Shown: piece by piece, positions 2,996 through 30,641 of the stretch
Layout of the letters: each line of letters opens with the position of its first letter
How positions within the stretch are numbered: position 1 is the stretch's first letter
Origin: a virus
Lineage: Duplodnaviria; Caudoviricetes
Direction: 5' to 3' (one strand)
DNA: 64,000 bases
IMG/VR virus record: IMGVR_UViG_3300034128_000023
Location: 147-64,146 of that record
The notes under the pieces: model-generated
The model's database searches: none
What the model saw: the letters and a program-made list of their open reading frames with translations, nothing else
What the model was told of the DNA's origin: nothing
Position numbers and translations under genes: made by a program

Positions 2996-3031
2996 GCGAT
3001 TTGTATACCAGGGTTTAGGGTTAGGTGTCAA
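2996..3031 (-). promoter_or_regulatory. early promoter, leaderless
   Basis: TTGACA-N18-TATACA-N6-ATG. Confidence 0.75.
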
Positions 3032-3233
3032 GCATGATGAAGGGGGTGCCGCAGTGCTCGCACTTCTTCAGCTCTGCGTTCCGAGAGACCAAGAAGTAGT
3101 GGGAGCATTTCTCCGGGTCAACAGACCACGGGTGCCGGGGGCAGTCCGAGCAGTGGAAACGGGGGTGCTCGTCGTTGCCCCCGCAGCAGGAGAAATCCTC
3201 GTCGTCATCGTGCTGCGGGGGCTTGAGTTTCAT
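3021..3233 (-). CDS. small Cys/His-rich (Zn-binding) protein
   Basis: HCSDC, CSH, CEHCG motifs. Confidence 0.6.
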   Translation of the reverse strand: MKLKPPQHDDDEDFSCCGGNDEHPRFHCSDCPRHPWSVDPEKCSHYFLVSRNAELKKCEHCGTPFIMLDT

Positions 3234-3242
3234 GGTTTGCCC

Positions 3243-3533
3243 TTATGGTGTTGTCCCCTTCATTGCCTTTTCCAGGTGCTCGATGACCAGTTTTTTAACC
3301 CAGTAGCATGGCGCCGCTGTCCCCGCCGCCCACCGCAAAACCGCCGACGGCGCCACCCCGAAGTTGAAGGCGATATCGTTCTTGTTGACGGCGTAGGTGT
3401 CGAGGGCGGCCTTTACGACCCCCGCGAATCTGTCCCCCGACGTCGCCGCCAGGTCGCACCCACCGCACTGGTTGGGGGTGGCACATCCGCCACAGGGGTC
3501 GGTGTCGCTGAGGTCCTTAATCCAGTAGGTCAC
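3243..3533 (-). CDS. XRE-like HTH protein with Cys-rich N-terminus
   Basis: NDIAFNFGVAPSAVLRWAAGTAAP fits the XRE HTH pattern; CxxC pairs. Confidence 0.55.
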   Translation of the reverse strand: MTYWIKDLSDTDPCGGCATPNQCGGCDLAATSGDRFAGVVKAALDTYAVNKNDIAFNFGVAPSAVLRWAAGTAAPCYWVKKLVIEHLEKAMKGTTP

Positions 3534-3919
3534 TTGGACTCCCTGAGCGCCTTGACGGCGTAGGTCAGCCAGTACAGCTCGTCGAAGGTGAGCATCACGG
3601 ACTCGGCCCGGAAGGCGTACACCCCCTTGATTTTATGAGCCATGCTCTCAGCGTCGCCGAGGGTATCGCCGAGGTTAAGCAGGTGGCGTCCGTCGAACCA
3701 CCAGTAGGACGAACGGCTGCACGTCTCCAGCAGCTCGGCAGTAGGACGCCCCCGCCACCACCGTGCCAGCCGCCCCATCGAGGCGTAGTTCTGCTCGCAC
3801 TCCTCCAGGAACTTCTCCCGGCACTGCTTGCGGTAGTCACCCACACCATCGAGGATTTCGTTCGCCAGCAGCAGAGCATCTTCCCGGTTCAGCGTCACGT
3901 TTGCCATTTTTGTCCTCAC
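3530..3919 (-). CDS. hypothetical protein
   Basis: 129 aa ORF, 4-nt overlaps with both neighbours. Confidence 0.7.
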   Translation of the reverse strand: MRTKMANVTLNREDALLLANEILDGVGDYRKQCREKFLEECEQNYASMGRLARWWRGRPTAELLETCSRSSYWWFDGRHLLNLGDTLGDAESMAHKIKGVYAFRAESVMLTFDELYWLTYAVKALRESK

Positions 3920-4383
3920 TTATCAGACTGCGTCCACGAGGGCGGGGTTGTCGAGGTGGGCGCGAGTTCATCCGCGCTGTAACTGAGCTTGCACCCGTTG
4001 TCCAGGAGTACGTGGTACGGGTGCACGAGATGCTCGTCGATGTCCAACACGCTCCCGCACTCCCCAGGAAACGCGGCGATAGGAACGGTGTGCTTCACCT
4101 GGACTCGCGAGCAAACGCCCAGAAGCTTCGAGGTCCAGTAGTCCACTGGCCTGACGCCTGCCAAGACTGCTGTGCCCCCCACCTTCAGCGGCTCCACCTT
4201 CAGCGGCTCCACCTTCAGCGGAACCGGCCCGGTGAACTTCACCGCATCGTAGCTGAGCAGACAAATCCCCAGCACCACCACGGCGGCACCCAGGGCCTGA
4301 AGGAGGGGGCCGAAAAGGCCCGCCAGCACGAGCCACATGAGAACAGCGACCACACCGTTGAGCACGACTGCAAGAATTTTCAT
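3916..4383 (-). CDS. membrane-anchored protein with SH3-like C-terminal domain
   Basis: Two hydrophobic segments, PLKVE x3 linker, G.V....Y.V.LDNG...YSADEL. Confidence 0.7.
   Translation of the reverse strand: MKILAVVLNGVVAVLMWLVLAGLFGPLLQALGAAVVVLGICLLSYDAVKFTGPVPLKVEPLKVEPLKVGGTAVLAGVRPVDYWTSKLLGVCSRVQVKHTVPIAAFPGECGSVLDIDEHLVHPYHVLLDNGCKLSYSADELAPTSTTPPSWTQSDK
4180..4221. repeat. 15-bp tandem repeat (about 2.8 copies, encodes PLKVE)
   Basis: CACCTTCAGCGGCTC repeated. Confidence 0.9.
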
Positions 4384-4419
4384 GGGGTATTAGTACCAGG
4401 GTTGGGGGTTGGATGTCAA
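4384..4419 (-). promoter_or_regulatory. early promoter, leaderless
   Basis: TTGACA-N18-TACTAA-N6-ATG. Confidence 0.75.
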
Positions 4420-4422
4420 GCT

Positions 4423-4926
4423 TCAGATTCCGAACTCCGCGATGAACTTCGCGCGGGCGCCATACAGCTTCGCGACCCGCGCGTAGAGGACTTCTTCGAC
4501 CGTCATCGGCCGCGGGGCCATGTGCATCGAATCCTTGGTCTCGAACCAGTCCAGCTTCTCGGGCCAGGGCTCGGGGGTCCCGGTGCTGGCCCGGTAGAGC
4601 GCAACGAATTCGTACTGGGACGTAAGGAACTCGCGCTCCATAGTCTCCACCGTCATGCGGCGAAGCTCGACGCCGGTCCACTCTTTTGCGCAATGGGGGC
4701 AATAGAAGGTGGAATTCTCGACGTCGCACATGATGCCGCCACGGCCCTTGCACCTGTGCTCGATGTCGATGAGGTGCTTGCGGCGCATCGAGAAGTCCAC
4801 CAGGCGCGACGGCAGCCACAGGTTCGTACTCAAGACGCAGTTGCTGTCGGCGGTCCACCCCGAAACCGTCGGCAGGAGTCTTGCAACGTCGGCCTGAATC
4901 CTCTTGTGTCGGGCTTGCTCGTCCAT
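4423..4926 (-). CDS. hypothetical protein with CxxC
   Basis: 167 aa ORF; TTGACA-N17-TATATA-N6-ATG upstream. Confidence 0.75.
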   Translation of the reverse strand: MDEQARHKRIQADVARLLPTVSGWTADSNCVLSTNLWLPSRLVDFSMRRKHLIDIEHRCKGRGGIMCDVENSTFYCPHCAKEWTGVELRRMTVETMEREFLTSQYEFVALYRASTGTPEPWPEKLDWFETKDSMHMAPRPMTVEEVLYARVAKLYGARAKFIAEFGI

Positions 4927-4963
4927 GATGTTTATATACCTGAGCTGGGGCTCTCTGTCAAGC

Positions 4964-5272
4964 TCACCGGAGATATACTGCGCCGTACTGCGTCAGGCCG
5001 AACTTCTCGGGGCCCTCAAGGATGTTACCGCGGACGTGCTTGGCGGGGGCCTTCCAGCTGGCCGTCTTCAGGACGTTGCCGGTAGCCCGCTCGATGAAGC
5101 AGTAGGCCGACCCGCCGTCAGCCGGGTTGTGGTAGTGAGCCACGATGCGGATGTATTTGGGGCCGAACTGAGCCGTGAAGACCTGGTAGCCGAAGGGGCG
5201 GACCATGTTCTGGTTGAGGTAGTCCATGAAGACGCAAAAAGCGGGGGACTCAGGGCTGAGAGGGAGGTCCAT
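4964..5272 (-). CDS. hypothetical phage protein
   Basis: AYCFIERATGNVLKTASWKAPAKHVRGNI; TTGACG-N18-TACTAA-N6-ATG upstream. Confidence 0.75.
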   Translation of the reverse strand: MDLPLSPESPAFCVFMDYLNQNMVRPFGYQVFTAQFGPKYIRIVAHYHNPADGGSAYCFIERATGNVLKTASWKAPAKHVRGNILEGPEKFGLTQYGAVYLR

Positions 5273-5296
5273 GTCCATTTAGTACCACAACCCCAT

Positions 5297-5563
5297 TCAG
5301 TGCGTCAAGAGGTATTCGAGTATGGGGTTGAGAAGCTTGGCGGTCTGCCAGTCGATTGGCCTCGCCCCACAGCTCCCGCACACCAGCAATGGGAAGTCGG
5401 GCGGGACCTCAACCTCTTGCCCCCGGTGGGGAATCATACGGCCAGGGCCCTGAGCCAACTCAAGCTCTATCGCACCGCCCACCAGGATTCGAACCTGGAA
5501 CCCGGCGCTTATGAGGCGCTGGCTCCACCATTGAGCTATGGGCCCTTGAGGGAGGCAGAGCAC
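5297..5563 (-). CDS. Zn-ribbon-like protein whose N-terminal part reads through a tRNA-like sequence
   Basis: AAGGAGG 9 nt before GTG; C-terminal GPGR...EVPPDFPLLVCGSCG resembles MqsA/YgiT-type ribbons. Confidence 0.5.
   Translation of the reverse strand: MLCLPQGPIAQWWSQRLISAGFQVRILVGGAIELELAQGPGRMIPHRGQEVEVPPDFPLLVCGSCGARPIDWQTAKLLNPILEYLLTH
5474..5545 (-). tRNA. degenerate tRNA, anticodon CAU (Ile2/Met-like), probable pseudo-tRNA
   Basis: GGGCCCA-TA-GCTC/GAGC D arm, CTCATAA loop, CCAGG-TTCGAAT-CCTGG T arm; acceptor pairs 1-2 mismatched, no CCA. Confidence 0.8.
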
Positions 5564-5829
5564 TTTCGATTGCCTCCTTGATTGCTGTAGGAGGTGAGTA
5601 CCACCACGACCTCCCCGGTGTTCTTGACTTTGACGACCTCTTCGGAGCACTCCCTCCAAGCGGTCGACTTTGCCCACGCCATGAGGACGGCCCTCTGGGC
5701 GCTCTTGGCCTCGAACTCCCAAGGTGCTCCGCCCGTGATATCAAACACGTAGGTGCGCATCCTCTCGGACGGAGGCGGGGGCTCGGGAGGAAAGAAGAAG
5801 TTCTTCAGGCGTTGGAGCACGGACTTCAC
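5536..5829 (-). CDS. hypothetical protein
   Basis: 97 aa ORF; stop TAG falls inside the 5' end of the tRNA-like element. Confidence 0.55.
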   Translation of the reverse strand: MKSVLQRLKNFFFPPEPPPPSERMRTYVFDITGGAPWEFEAKSAQRAVLMAWAKSTAWRECSEEVVKVKNTGEVVVVLTSYSNQGGNRKCSASLKGP

Positions 5830-6338
5830 CAGCCGCCCCTCTCGAGGAAGTCCAGGACGACCGCCTCCACCTTCTTGAAGGGGACCAGAGCGCGAAACTC
5901 ATTGCAAATAGCGACGCAGCGGACCTTGCCGATGCGGTCGATTTCTTTGCTTTCCTGGTCACGGATTCGGTCGATTTCCGCCTGAGTGGAGTCGAAAGCT
6001 TCCGTTTCCTTCAGGCCCTGGAACGGCCGACCGTCGAACCACCTCAGCCCCGTTCGGGCGCGGTAGTCGCGAACGGCCTTCTCCTCGCCGCGGTAGCCCT
6101 CGTCGTAGACCCGCTGGGCGTCGAGGGCGATTGCTCCGCGCCGCCCATAGAGAATAGCGTCCATCGCGTCGAATTCCTCCTGCCCGTCCATCAAGAACAT
6201 GAACCAGCTGGGGACCTCGCACTTGTTCCAGAGGTCCTCGACGGTCCCCGGAGTATTATTGACCCAGCGCGTTGACCAGCCGCAGGCCTTGCGGGCGTCC
6301 AGGTAGGTGTCGAGCCGGTTTCGGGTGAGGGTTTTCAT
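5826..6338 (-). CDS. paralog family member 1 (MKxLTR...AC...W...W.KC...W)
   Basis: Aligns by eye with 6600-7100 and 7116-7619. Confidence 0.8.
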   Translation of the reverse strand: MKTLTRNRLDTYLDARKACGWSTRWVNNTPGTVEDLWNKCEVPSWFMFLMDGQEEFDAMDAILYGRRGAIALDAQRVYDEGYRGEEKAVRDYRARTGLRWFDGRPFQGLKETEAFDSTQAEIDRIRDQESKEIDRIGKVRCVAICNEFRALVPFKKVEAVVLDFLERGGW

Positions 6339-13795: not shown

Positions 13796-15820
13796 TCACT
13801 TTTTGGCGGGGAAGAATTCGTCGAGCCAGCCGTTTTTGGTGGCGACGTGGTAGGCCCCGCTAGAACCTTTTGCGAATTCCGTCCTGGTCTTATACTTTGC
13901 CGCTTCCGCTCGGACGCTTTTAGGGCCCCAAGGCCGCTGCACCCGGGTAATATGTGCGCAAACTTTATCTAACCAACCGTTTTTGGCGGCGGCCTGGTAG
14001 GCCCCGCTAGAACCTTTTGCGAATTCCCCACGTGTTTTGTACTTCAGCGCCTCCGCTTGGCATGAGCCGATATCCCAATAGGTGAGTACCCGGGGCATGT
14101 GGGCGCAAACCTTATCGTGCAAGCCTCTGAGCTTGGCCGCGTTGTAGGCTGATTGAGAGCCTTGCTGGAAGGCCCTACGGGTCTTGTACTTCAGCGCCTC
14201 GGCTTGGATAGACTCAAGGTCCCACGACCGATGCTGCATAGCCATGTGCAAACACACGTCATCGCGCCAGTCGTTATACATGGCCGCCCTGTAGGCGTTG
14301 GGGGACCCTTTTGCAAATTCCCCACGTGTTTTGTACTTCAAGGCCTCTGCCCGGACAGCTTCGAGGGTCCAAGCCTTCCACTCCCTCAGCACCGTCCCGC
14401 CCAGCACCTCAATCGCGTACGCAATCGACCCGTGGGCGTATGAGGCCGCAGGCGCGGTGTCAAGGTGGGCCAAGTCCTTCAGGGTCAAGAACTCTGGCAG
14501 GTCGATGTTGGGGATTTTGTTCGGGTTCTTCTTGGTCTCTGCCCGGATGCGCTCGCCGATTTCACGGTGCTTGCGGTGCACGGGGAAGTCCTCGCGGGGA
14601 ATCTTGCCGTGGGGCAGCGAATAGACTTCGGGGGTCGACATGGCCAGCACGTAAGCCATGACGGTGTGCGTCACGAAGGCCACCTTGCGGGGCGTCACCT
14701 TCAAGAAGAGCTTCGGGGTCGTATCGGCCTTGTCAAAGCGCACGACGCGCGACATCAACTGGAAGGTCATGTCGACGTTGTGCGAACCCGTCATATCAAC
14801 CACGTTCTTCAGCTCGGGAATGTCGGTCCCCAGGACGCCGCGGTCGACCACCACCAAAATCCCGTTCGGCTTCTCGCGGAACTCGCTAAAGAACAAAGAG
14901 TCTGGGTCCGTGTCGGACGTCGAGACGCGCACTTCGAGACCCAGGTCGGTCAGCTTCTGCCCGACCAGCTTGGCCTGCTTCTGGTCGTGGCACGCCCAAA
15001 TCGTCGGGGCGATTTTGGTCTTGAGGAGCCACTTGGCGATACCAAACCCCTTCAGGAACTGTGCCCACCACGCCGCGTAGACTGCTGGGTCACGGAGCCG
15101 CGAAGTGCATCGCTGCACCAGGAGCCCCACGACTTCTTGCAGGGCCTCCAAGGTGTCTGCGTCGACCGATTCTGGCTTGAGCCTCTGGTTCGCATCCCAG
15201 TCGGCCAGAGACAGGTTCGCCCCGGTCTGGACCAGCTCGACATTGAGGTCAGCGTAAACGCCCGGATTCTCTCGGATGATTTCGGCCATCGAGACCGTGA
15301 CGACTGGCGCCTCTTTTGAAATCAGGTACTTGTTGGGGGTACCAGTGAGGAGCAGCACCTTCGCCTTGGGGTTGGCGGCCCGGATGCCCTTGACCATCGA
15401 GCCCTCGACGAAGTGATGAGCTTCATCGACGACAATCATGGTGTAGCCCTTGGCCGAATTCTTCTTGACAAAGGCGTGAGGCAGCGAAAGGTGGAGGTTG
15501 GCAGACGGATTCGGACCAGCCGTGGGGGTCGTAGTCCATGGCTCGACGTGGCGAGACCCCGGGCCGAGAGTCGCATAGCTGAACTCTCGAGGGTCTTCGA
15601 GGAAGCGGTCGAAGGTCTGGTCCAGCAGGTTGTTCTGCCCGTGGGCCAGCCACAGGACCTTGGCGTTCGGGGTCGACTTGATGTGGGCGGTGGCGACCGT
15701 CTGCCCCATCAGCGTCTTACCTGACCCAGGGGGGCCCGCCATAACGACGATGCCGTCTTGGCGGAGCGCCTCCTGGGCGTCCTCTACGAGTCTCTTCTGG
15801 AATTCGTACAGGGTCTTCAT
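13796..15820 (-). CDS. SF2 helicase with four C-terminal ~49-aa repeats
   Basis: GPPGSGKT, VVDEAHH, LLTGTP, QLMSRVVR; TTGACG-N18-TACTAA-N6-ATG upstream. Confidence 0.85.
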   Translation of the reverse strand: MKTLYEFQKRLVEDAQEALRQDGIVVMAGPPGSGKTLMGQTVATAHIKSTPNAKVLWLAHGQNNLLDQTFDRFLEDPREFSYATLGPGSRHVEPWTTTPTAGPNPSANLHLSLPHAFVKKNSAKGYTMIVVDEAHHFVEGSMVKGIRAANPKAKVLLLTGTPNKYLISKEAPVVTVSMAEIIRENPGVYADLNVELVQTGANLSLADWDANQRLKPESVDADTLEALQEVVGLLVQRCTSRLRDPAVYAAWWAQFLKGFGIAKWLLKTKIAPTIWACHDQKQAKLVGQKLTDLGLEVRVSTSDTDPDSLFFSEFREKPNGILVVVDRGVLGTDIPELKNVVDMTGSHNVDMTFQLMSRVVRFDKADTTPKLFLKVTPRKVAFVTHTVMAYVLAMSTPEVYSLPHGKIPREDFPVHRKHREIGERIRAETKKNPNKIPNIDLPEFLTLKDLAHLDTAPAASYAHGSIAYAIEVLGGTVLREWKAWTLEAVRAEALKYKTRGEFAKGSPNAYRAAMYNDWRDDVCLHMAMQHRSWDLESIQAEALKYKTRRAFQQGSQSAYNAAKLRGLHDKVCAHMPRVLTYWDIGSCQAEALKYKTRGEFAKGSSGAYQAAAKNGWLDKVCAHITRVQRPWGPKSVRAEAAKYKTRTEFAKGSSGAYHVATKNGWLDEFFPAKK
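13799..14371 (-). repeat. four ~147-nt coding repeats (W.....AEA.KYKTR.EF..GS..AY)
   Basis: 33-bp exact duplicate at 13848-13880 and 13995-14027. Confidence 0.9.
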
Positions 15821-29408: not shown

Positions 29409-29441
29409 CAGTCCCCGTTCCGCAGATGTAGAGTGCGCGCC
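29405..29441 (+). promoter_or_regulatory. early promoter of rtcB, leaderless
   Basis: TTGACA-N18-TAGAGT-N7-ATG. Confidence 0.75.
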
Positions 29442-30641
29442 ATGAACTTCCAAGTGATGCACGGCAAGTCGGGTCTCGTCAAGCACTGGACCGCAGGCGT
29501 CGAGTTCGAGGAGGAGGCCCAGAAGCAGGTCCTCAATGTGGCCGACCTCCCCTTCATCTTCAAGCATGTGGCCGTCATGCCCGACACCCACGCTGGGCTT
29601 GGTGCGACCATCGGCTCGGTCATCCCCACCATGGGGGCCGTTATCCCCGCAGCCTGTGGAGTCGACATCGGTTGTGGAATTAGTTGCGTCAAGCTTGATG
29701 GGGTCGCCACCAAGGACCTCGTCAAGAACGCAGGTTACCTGCGAGAGAAAATCGAGCACGTGGTTCCCCACGGCCGCACCGCCAACGGTGGGGTAGGCGA
29801 TGTGGGCGCCCACAAGGCCATCCCCGAAGCTGTCGAAAACTGCTGGAAGAGCGAGCTGGTCGAGGGGTACAACGACATGGTGTACGTCGACCCCGAACTC
29901 GCCCACAAGGGCGTGCTGAGCCAGCTCGGCACCCTCGGCACCGGCAACCATTTCTTCGAGTTGTCCACAGACGAGAATGACGGCGTGTGGGCCATTGTCC
30001 ACAGCGGCTCGCGGGGCATCGGGAACAAGATTGGACAGACCTTCATCAACAAGGCTAAGGCCGCCATGCAGACCTGGCACATCACGCTGGCAGACCCCAA
30101 CCTGGCCTACCTCCCCACGGGCACTCTCGACTTCGCGGCGTACATGCGGGCCGTCGAGTGGGCTCAGAGGTACGCTCGGCTCAGCCGTGAGCTGATGATG
30201 CGGGCCGCGGTCCAGGCCCTCGGTCTGAGGGGCTCGGGGCACATCGACTGCCATCACAATTTCGTGGCGTGGGAGCAGCATTTCGGCAAGTCCATTTTGG
30301 TGACCCGCAAGGGGGCCGTTCGTGCCCGCGTGGGCGACAAGGGCATCATTCCGGGGTCGATGGGGGCGCGCTCCTACATCGTGGAGGGCCTCGGCAACCC
30401 AGAGTCCTTCATGTCCTGCTCTCACGGCGCAGGCCGCCGCATGTCCCGCACCGAAGCGAAGCGGACCTTCTCGCTCGAGGACCACGCCAAGGCAACCGCG
30501 GGTGTGGATTGCCGCCAGGACGCCGACGTACTCGACGAAACTCCGGGCGCTTACAAGAGCATCGATTCCGTCATGGCGGCCCAGGCCGACCTCGTCAAAA
30601 TCAAGCATACCTTGAAGGCCTTTTTGTGCATCAAGGGTTGA
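29442..30641 (+). CDS. rtcB: RNA 3'-phosphate ligase RtcB
   Basis: MPDTHAG, GVDIGCG, GTGNHF, HSGSRG, CHHN, RKGA, PGSMG, SHGAGR. Confidence 0.95.
   Translation: MNFQVMHGKSGLVKHWTAGVEFEEEAQKQVLNVADLPFIFKHVAVMPDTHAGLGATIGSVIPTMGAVIPAACGVDIGCGISCVKLDGVATKDLVKNAGYLREKIEHVVPHGRTANGGVGDVGAHKAIPEAVENCWKSELVEGYNDMVYVDPELAHKGVLSQLGTLGTGNHFFELSTDENDGVWAIVHSGSRGIGNKIGQTFINKAKAAMQTWHITLADPNLAYLPTGTLDFAAYMRAVEWAQRYARLSRELMMRAAVQALGLRGSGHIDCHHNFVAWEQHFGKSILVTRKGAVRARVGDKGIIPGSMGARSYIVEGLGNPESFMSCSHGAGRRMSRTEAKRTFSLEDHAKATAGVDCRQDADVLDETPGAYKSIDSVMAAQADLVKIKHTLKAFLCIKG

Follow-up and report, generated by a model that had tools for sequence, protein, structure and literature searches.

The question posed by positions 5297 to 5563 (minus strand) of this stretch of viral DNA is how a tRNA with mismatched acceptor pairs came to lie, stop-free, inside an open frame with a zinc-ribbon-like end, and whether RNA and protein can both be functional products of the same letters. 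Sequence comparison favors, with a probability of roughly 0.6, a rearrangement scar joining a 3'-clipped tRNA to a 5'-clipped gene, as opposed to a designed dual-coding element; such a scar is most likely a one-off.

The window (i.e., the whole stretch of DNA analyzed, 64,000 nucleotides at 61% G+C) comes from a 64,146-bp IMG/VR record, which it covers almost completely and whose completeness is rated at 38%. Judged by its tail sheath, which shares 44% identity with the counterpart in Myxococcus phage Mx1, the window phage is an uncultured, Myxococcus-type relative of Mx1, itself the sole cultured relative found. Queries of IMG/VR with the 88-aa product of the open frame, its 170-aa neighbour, and the tail sheath recovered no relatives, and word-indexed protein searches with the 58-aa, 170-aa, and 97-aa products hit nothing beyond proteins of the window itself. 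Mx1 (with approximately 38 tRNAs) has a counterpart of neither the window tRNA(CAU) nor the zinc-ribbon gene. The join described below is known from one phage genome, no relative having been found that would display the state before it. A second public assembly, a 13,844-bp Logan contig built from reads that are possibly of the same sample, encodes an identical 88-aa product, including the Val-Gly-Gly over the junction, making an assembly slip unlikely. The tRNA(CAU) lies within a run of small minus-strand genes, most of which are without known relatives by Pfam and PHROG matching. Feature coordinates are collected in Table 1.

Table 1. Features at and around the tRNA(CAU) locus, in window coordinates
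Feature	Position	Strand	Basis
tRNA(CAU) body, nucleotides 1-70: 5' acceptor strand GGGCCCA, D arm, CUCAUAA anticodon loop, T arm, 3' acceptor strand to C70	5477..5545	-	ARAGORN, Rfam, 74-86% identity to Myxococcota tRNA(CAU), alignment A6
GGT in place of tRNA nucleotides 71-73; also the Gly30 codon, aligned to the Gly of the family CxxCG	5474..5476	-	Sequence reading, alignments
Candidate junction zone; approximately 6 nt fit both partners	5474..5482	-	End of Rfam match (5477), start of profile A4 match (5482)
5'-clipped MqsA-like zinc-ribbon domain; keeps GPGR, second knuckle, and ARPIDW	5300..5482	-	phmmer, alignments A1 and A4, codon GC
Whole open frame, 88 codons from GTG 5563; residues 7-30 tRNA-encoded	5297..5563	-	ORF reading, gene calls
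AAGGAGG, Shine-Dalgarno-like, 9 nt before GTG 5563-5561, within the 3' end of the upstream ORF	5573..5579	-	Sequence
Predicted hairpin: GGAGGCA (5577-5571) pairs with TGCCTCC (5557-5551), 7 bp, 13-nt loop holding the GTG	5551..5577	-	Minimum-free-energy fold of 5420-5600
Upstream 97-aa gene; stop TAG 5538-5536 = tRNA U8-A9-G10; start overlaps the stop of gene 5826-6338	5536..5829	-	ORF reading
Promoter-like element: TTGACG (5308-5303), 18 nt, TACTAA (5284-5279); runs over the final codons and stop of the zinc-ribbon remnant	5279..5308	-	Sequence, upstream-region listing

An earlier note on this DNA had described 5545-5474 (minus strand) as a decayed tRNA, with intact D and T arms and G.G mismatches at acceptor pairs 1 and 2. 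The fold is borne out: ARAGORN calls a tRNA-Met(CAT) at 5472-5546 (minus strand), and the Rfam tRNA model RF00005 matches with 46.9 bits against a gathering threshold of 29, the match being local and covering model positions 3-68 only, since 1:72 and 2:71 are G.G. Between the acceptor strands GGGCCCA and TGGGCGG, pairs 3:70 to 7:66 are good, with the result falling short of a seven-pair stem closed at 1:72 and followed by a discriminator. The D, anticodon, and T arms are intact, and U8, A14, G18, G19, U54, U55, C56, A58, and G53-C61 are all present, as read from the sequence and the Rfam alignment; A27.C43 is present, and no CCA is encoded. Minimum-free-energy folding commonly fails to recover the cloverleaf of tRNAs and does so here (-29.1 versus -24.7 kcal/mol; z-score -0.7), thus carrying no weight.

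As to identity (tRNA-Ile2, with its CAU changed to lysidine, as opposed to elongator tRNA-Met), the elements recognized by TilS and IleRS in Escherichia coli are C4-G69, C5-G68, U12-A23, C29-G41, a wobble pair at 27:43, and A73. The window tRNA has the first four, with A.C at 27:43 and A73 missing; a T5-type tRNA-Lys also possesses C4-G69, C5-G68, and U12-A23. The three consecutive G-C pairs (29-31 with 39-41) and the C1.A72 mismatch of a bacterial initiator tRNA were not found, with the anticodon stem being C29-G41, G30-C40, C31-G39 and position 1:72 being G.G, not C1.A72.

By BLAST, tRNA(CAU) genes 74-86% identical to the window tRNA are present in 47 of 61 Archangium-order genomes, and 23 Myxococcota copies were extracted for position-by-position comparison. 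Every one of these has a GG 5' end, and at positions 67-73 the sequence is GGGCCCA for 21 copies and GGGCCTA for the other 2, versus GGGCGGT in the phage. Pair 27:43 is G.U or A.C in the host tRNA(CAU), and CCA is encoded in 4/23 copies and absent in 19/23, such that the host must add CCA post-transcriptionally. The non-Watson-Crick 27:43 pair and the usually unencoded CCA are thus held in common with the window tRNA; as both traits are common to host and other phage tRNAs of this type, A27.C43 and the missing CCA do not indicate decay, contrary to how the earlier note had read them, and the molecule is better described as clipped at one end and otherwise intact. In a representative case from an Archangium metagenome-assembled genome (MAG; L042, 1497-1570), the GGGCCCA 5' strand, D arm, T arm, and 3' strand to C70 are shared with the phage. 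Beyond this nucleotide the Myxococcota tRNAs continue with C71-C72-A73 (C(C/T)A across the 23-copy set), whereas the window tRNA has GGT followed by coding sequence. The anticodon stem of the window tRNA differs from that of the host yet stays paired; these pairing-preserving differences mean that it evolved as a tRNA until it was clipped.

The same 21-nt anticodon arm, A27.C43 included, is found in tRNA(CAU) genes of two unrelated, lower-G+C IMG/VR phage contigs (L002, 3107-3181; L003, 5430-5504), both with normal acceptor stems and an encoded CCA. From these sequences, the arm looks like a shared identity feature of the phage and host tRNA(CAU) type. Longer exact tRNA patterns had no match in genome or metagenome contigs, and no tRNA(CAU) lies within 1.5 kb of an MqsA-like gene in six host genomes.

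The protein half of the locus is recognizable through a family that eludes word-indexed searches. The 88-aa ORF matches nothing in Pfam, PHROGs, or NCBIfam, and word-indexed searches yielded zero homologues of the open frame; an exhaustive phmmer search of 1.84 billion representatives returned 11 homologues, with E values from 9e-15 (P0003, which together with P0004 is closest, both being on Logan contigs) to 3e-4. These are distant MqsA-like zinc-ribbon proteins, mostly from metagenome assemblies and also from Myxococcota genomes. The family occurs in 8 of the 61 sampled Archangium-order genomes, as well as in an Archangium MAG (L037) and a JGI metagenome contig (L038); across IMG/VR and GenBank phages (50,697 phage records), the domain was not found. 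Homologues share a layout of Met, 4-7 residues, CPVCG, approximately 9 residues, GPGR, approximately 19 residues, a second CxxCG, and ARPID, with long members carrying an extra helical domain. Of note, the family as such passes no Pfam or NCBIfam model.

Likeness to E. coli MqsA (YgiT; PDB 3gn5, 3ga8, 3hi2) lies in the CxxCG...CxxCG zinc ribbon followed by a helix-turn-helix. The MqsA model TIGR03830 aligns to the homologues over its full length (E 4e-7 to 1e-3), at 18-30 bits and hence below its cut-off of 61.8, and an AlphaFold2 model of the long homologue P0010 (pLDDT 86.6) has E. coli MqsA as its top Foldseek match (E 5.7e-5, probability 1.0). The resemblance is bounded by an identity of 16-18% and the absence of a PDB match by sequence. 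Unlike MqsA, the window copy is without the first knuckle and without the helix-turn-helix domain, its ORF ending before the latter. No toxin partner of the MqsR type was identified adjoining the zinc-ribbon remnant; the upstream ORF was considered for this role and rejected, having no likeness to the ORF upstream of the homologue on L038. On that contig, an ORF encoding at least 108 aa (2-328) precedes the MqsA-like gene (325-870), which overlaps its stop through an ATGA, in a toxin-antitoxin-like arrangement. On L037, the homologue (3001-3438) follows an Hsp70-like gene (1152-2891), with a convergent tRNA-Leu (3454-3536) 16 nt beyond it.

All four Cys are invariant among the 11 to 16 homologues of alignments A1, A2, and A4. 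The window frame retains only those of the second knuckle, Cys62 (5380-5378) and Cys65 (5371-5369), with Ile26 (5488-5486) and Gly29 (5479-5477) occupying the first two Cys columns. The Zn-ribbon-like C-terminus claimed earlier therefore holds as to zinc-ribbon homology, but as half a ribbon with a single CxxC. Alignment to the family proceeds gap-free onward from the Val inside the first CxxC (5482), and profile A4 matches 5288-5482 through its positions 8-72 only (E 5e-21); GC by codon position over the clipped domain is.66/.44/.75. In 9 of the 11 homologues and the L037 and L038 proteins, the start lies 4-7 residues before the first Cys, which corresponds to a point inside the T arm of the phage tRNA, and Ile-Leu-Val-Gly-Gly (codons 26-30) is encoded by the 3' half of the T stem together with the 3' acceptor strand. 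The tRNA thus occupies exactly the place expected for the zinc-ribbon start codon and first knuckle. The earlier note had proposed aligning homologues to see whether the tRNA-encoded segment is an insertion of 23 aa; the homologues are indeed without tRNA-encoded residues, but a clean 23-aa insertion is not what the alignment displays. Similarly, its suggestion of a tRNA inserted into or captured by a gene is sustained insofar as the tRNA sits in the footprint of a protein gene, but the tRNA replaces the N-terminus, with loss of two of the four zinc ligands and of its own nucleotides 71-73.

Likeness to tRNA ends at C70 (5477), and likeness to the gene starts at 5482. In the proposed event, a Myxococcota-type tRNA(CAU), from G1 to C70, would have been joined directly and in frame to an MqsA-like gene, which would now begin at the Val between its first two Cys. 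The join would have removed tRNA nucleotides 71-73 (C-C-A in the host homologues) as well as the ribosome-binding site, start codon, and first CxxC knuckle of the gene. A short deletion or illegitimate recombination between the tRNA and the gene just downstream may have brought this about, with crossing at the approximately six nucleotides that would fit both (GTGGGC in the tRNA versus GTNTGY for the Val-Cys codons); we think that a short deletion between the two is the most economical event. The microhomology with real homologue DNA is weak, however (7/15 matches to L037 and 7/15 to L038), so we can only infer the deletion mechanism. One junction would nonetheless explain (i) the G.G mismatches, (ii) the missing discriminator, (iii) the uninterrupted frame, and (iv) a downstream gene without its own start signal, as neither TTG 5458 nor ATG 5437 is preceded by a Shine-Dalgarno or -10 element. 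As both halves are otherwise intact, the event would be recent or tolerated. Counting against a scar is this very lack of further decay in either half, since the halves could still be working. A Shine-Dalgarno motif 9 nt before an in-frame GTG also counts against it, as this would arise by chance, on a rough estimate, well under 1% of the time for any given tRNA, with the caveat that the locus was picked for the feature.

Further ideas were tried and rejected. An attP at the tRNA is not in keeping with the lack of a tyrosine integrase (PF00589) in the contig or Mx1 (the search covered the tyrosine type) or with the presence of the whole cloverleaf minus its last 3 nt. Avoidance of GGGCCC as a restriction site is not in evidence, as the site is not depleted (49 versus 44 expected). 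The flanking direct repeat CTCA(A)GGGCCC, considered as a target-site duplication, is not significant, its score being equaled by 412 of 3000 random genomic pairs.

The earlier note was correct that AAGGAGG precedes GTG 5563 by 9 nt and that the frame runs stop-free across the tRNA, to a TGA at 5299-5297. An open frame through a tRNA is by itself not meaningful: among 46 phage tRNAs, 55 of 138 sense frames are open (40%). The frame of GTG 5563 also stays open for 53 codons further upstream, over a region clearly coding in another frame, and long spurious ORFs abound in the window DNA. One such ORF, of 440 codons (3763-5085, plus strand), is antisense to at least 4 real minus-strand genes, meaning that the length of an ORF says little here about whether it is real. 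Gene callers disagree, with that of the Logan contig picking the 88-aa form and IMG calling 53 aa from TTG 5458, and a promoter and terminator scan detected nothing around the tRNA. Real genes of the window phage use AAGGA(G) at similar spacing, making the motif with its in-frame GTG suggestive as a translation signal. Translation from GTG 5563 is possible, and ribosomes starting there and reading through unprocessed RNA may yield a by-product.

The alternative to be taken most seriously, though we hold it unlikely, is that the locus is a working chimeric gene, in which a 3'-clipped tRNA fragment was inserted in the first knuckle, the gene kept its own Shine-Dalgarno sequence and GTG, and the 88-aa protein is made and useful. 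It would read Met-Leu-Cys-Leu-Pro, approximately 24 tRNA-encoded residues, then Gly-Ala-Ile-Glu. Such a gene would explain the in-frame start much better than would a deletion, since retention of its own start would entail a Shine-Dalgarno motif and in-frame GTG; the 9-nt spacing is within the range of real phage starts, and the tRNA segment is exactly 24 codons and open. Cys3-Leu-Pro stands before the tRNA and Gly30 after it, such that one lost Cys codon would restore CxxCG, every other conserved family residue is kept in the remnant, and the 88-aa form is the one chosen in the Logan contig. However, the product is without two of four invariant zinc ligands, and its Met-Leu-Cys N-terminus is shorter than the 4-7 residues of the 11 homologues and the L037 and L038 proteins. 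The predicted 7-bp hairpin would sequester the Shine-Dalgarno-like motif, and the window has 12 copies of AAGGAGG, most of them remote from starts, with 4/12 preceding a start codon that opens an ORF longer than 50 codons. Moreover, an RNase P cut at the tRNA 5' end would split the start from the remaining frame, no relatives were found that could display conservation, and we know of no mechanism for precise tRNA insertion. Equally a matter of gene structure, and very improbable, is the notion of two unrelated features, namely a tRNA with three adjacent 3' point changes and a separate gene of 47-53 aa starting at TTG 5458 or ATG 5437, the shared frame being a coincidence of 61% G+C. The 40% of tRNA sense frames that are open, the plentiful spurious ORFs, and the IMG call would suit it, but the family profile aligns gap-free to 5482, inside the tRNA and well upstream of TTG 5458; a start at either codon would drop conserved residues and, as above, be without a Shine-Dalgarno or -10 element. 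That a tRNA otherwise intact should have changed at precisely its three final positions, one after the other, is also less economical than the one junction of a scar.

With respect to the RNA, the tRNA may instead still work, its end being rebuilt either through trimming to C70 and two rounds of CCA addition or through refolding after one, to give G1-C72, G2-C71, A73, and CCA; a variant would have a host Thg1-like protein rewrite G1G2 to match G71G72. We consider a functional rebuilt tRNA improbable, and marginally more so the compound case in which the clipped tRNA is rebuilt by tandem CCA addition or refolding while the unprocessed transcript is translated from GTG 5563. The tRNA has lost precisely C-C-A, which two successive rounds of CCA addition could in principle restore, and the host homologues, with GGGCC(C/T)A at 67-73 and 19/23 without CCA, are themselves completed by host CCA addition; G1G2 is present, the core is intact, and the differences in the anticodon stem keep pairing. 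A G1G2 requirement for CCACCA tagging was reportedly described by Wilusz et al. in 2011. When an acceptor stem is unstable, bacterial CCA-adding enzymes append CCA twice, and the resulting CCACCA tags the tRNA for decay (PMC5824355), and a Thg1-like protein is present in Myxococcus xanthus (PMC6471195). The published CCACCA cases mark decay, however, not rescue, and G71, G72, and U73 would first need to be removed or bulged out. No described case of bacterial or phage 3' or 5' acceptor editing was found, a search of the contig and of Mx1 for a Thg1 or CCA-adding enzyme gave none, and the phage seldom uses AUA (21 of 16,538 codons). Least credible of all, to the point of being far-fetched, is the earlier idea of an unchargeable decoy soaking up an anticodon nuclease or TilS/IleRS. 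An intact anticodon arm would be in keeping with it, and the two RNA ligases it invoked both exist, namely RtcB (29433-30641, plus strand; Pfam E 4e-113) and an Rnl-type ligase (PF09414; 41582-42529, minus strand; E 4e-14), which could repair cut tRNAs. They lie 24-36 kb away, though, with nothing found to link them to the locus; nothing in the sequence singles out one nuclease, the searches yielded no related phage by which to judge whether the defect is kept, and a junction with a clipped gene suffices to explain the defect without selection.

If the locus is a scar, the tRNA and the protein are probably both impaired. Given what is established about tRNAs, maturation and charging would be expected to work poorly on an RNA whose acceptor stem has 5 bp, whose 5' end is G1G2, and which is without a proper discriminator. 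The clipped tRNA would be of the kind with an unstable acceptor that is tagged CCACCA for decay; it shares with the targets of this surveillance the G1G2 end and weakened acceptor stem, the outcome here being predicted. The zinc ribbon, for its part, is left with two of four ligands and is unlikely to fold like its relatives.

Parallels to the locus exist in mitochondria. Human mitochondrial tRNA-Tyr and tRNA-Cys overlap, with 3' completion after transcription, and 3' acceptor editing occurs in molluscs and centipedes. In overlapping mitochondrial tRNA genes, the last tRNA nucleotides are taken over by the downstream gene, as at the window tRNA, and the missing letters could here in principle be supplied by a CCA-adding enzyme, akin to mitochondrial 3' completion. 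Whereas the mitochondrial cases are conserved, demonstrated organelle systems, the present case comprises one phage contig and a protein-gene neighbour. Should the tRNA be rebuilt and its unprocessed transcript translated, this would represent the first tRNA gene of a bacterial virus to be overlapped by a protein gene and completed post-transcriptionally in the manner of animal mitochondria.

The main value of the locus is as a worked example, in which an odd tRNA is resolved to a junction located within about six bases through two comparisons, with host tRNAs on one side and, on the other, with a protein family missed by fast word-indexed searches. An Mx1-related phage also carries two host-type pieces, one a tRNA(CAU) of Myxococcota-like sequence and the other a zinc-ribbon domain of MqsA-like type. 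Were the tRNA rebuilt by CCA addition, or the fusion translated, nature would have provided a system in which to examine the repair of tRNA ends and the emergence of new coding sequence from a tRNA.

The immediate neighbours add further detail. The upstream gene ends inside the 5' end of the tRNA, as had been noted earlier, and its 97-aa product had no homologue in a word-indexed search of 5.8 billion proteins. Downstream, the next gene is of the leaderless type, starting at ATG 5278 or 5272, and encodes a DUF7717 protein (Pfam and PHROG matches); the TTGACG/TACTAA element preceding it was not flagged by a strict consensus promoter scan. Elsewhere in the window, RtcB and the Rnl-type ligase could form a tRNA-repair tool kit.

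Inspection of Mx1 (OR576727.2; L035) yielded observations of its own, the first two concerning 3647-4024, 2170-2298, and 13916-15565. A tmRNA is unannotated in the record (Rfam 117.7 bits; tag peptide by ARAGORN). Between two tRNA-Pro genes, a stretch resembling the YrlA-like Y-RNA scores weakly (32 bits, below threshold), in a region that also has an annotated Ro/TROVE protein and a peptidyl-tRNA hydrolase. Finally, in the annotated Mx1 tRNA-Phe (3088-3160), the acceptor strands GCCAGGA and UCCUGUG-C attain full pairing only with one 3'-strand U bulged, indicating that odd acceptor stems are not unique to the window tRNA in this phage group.
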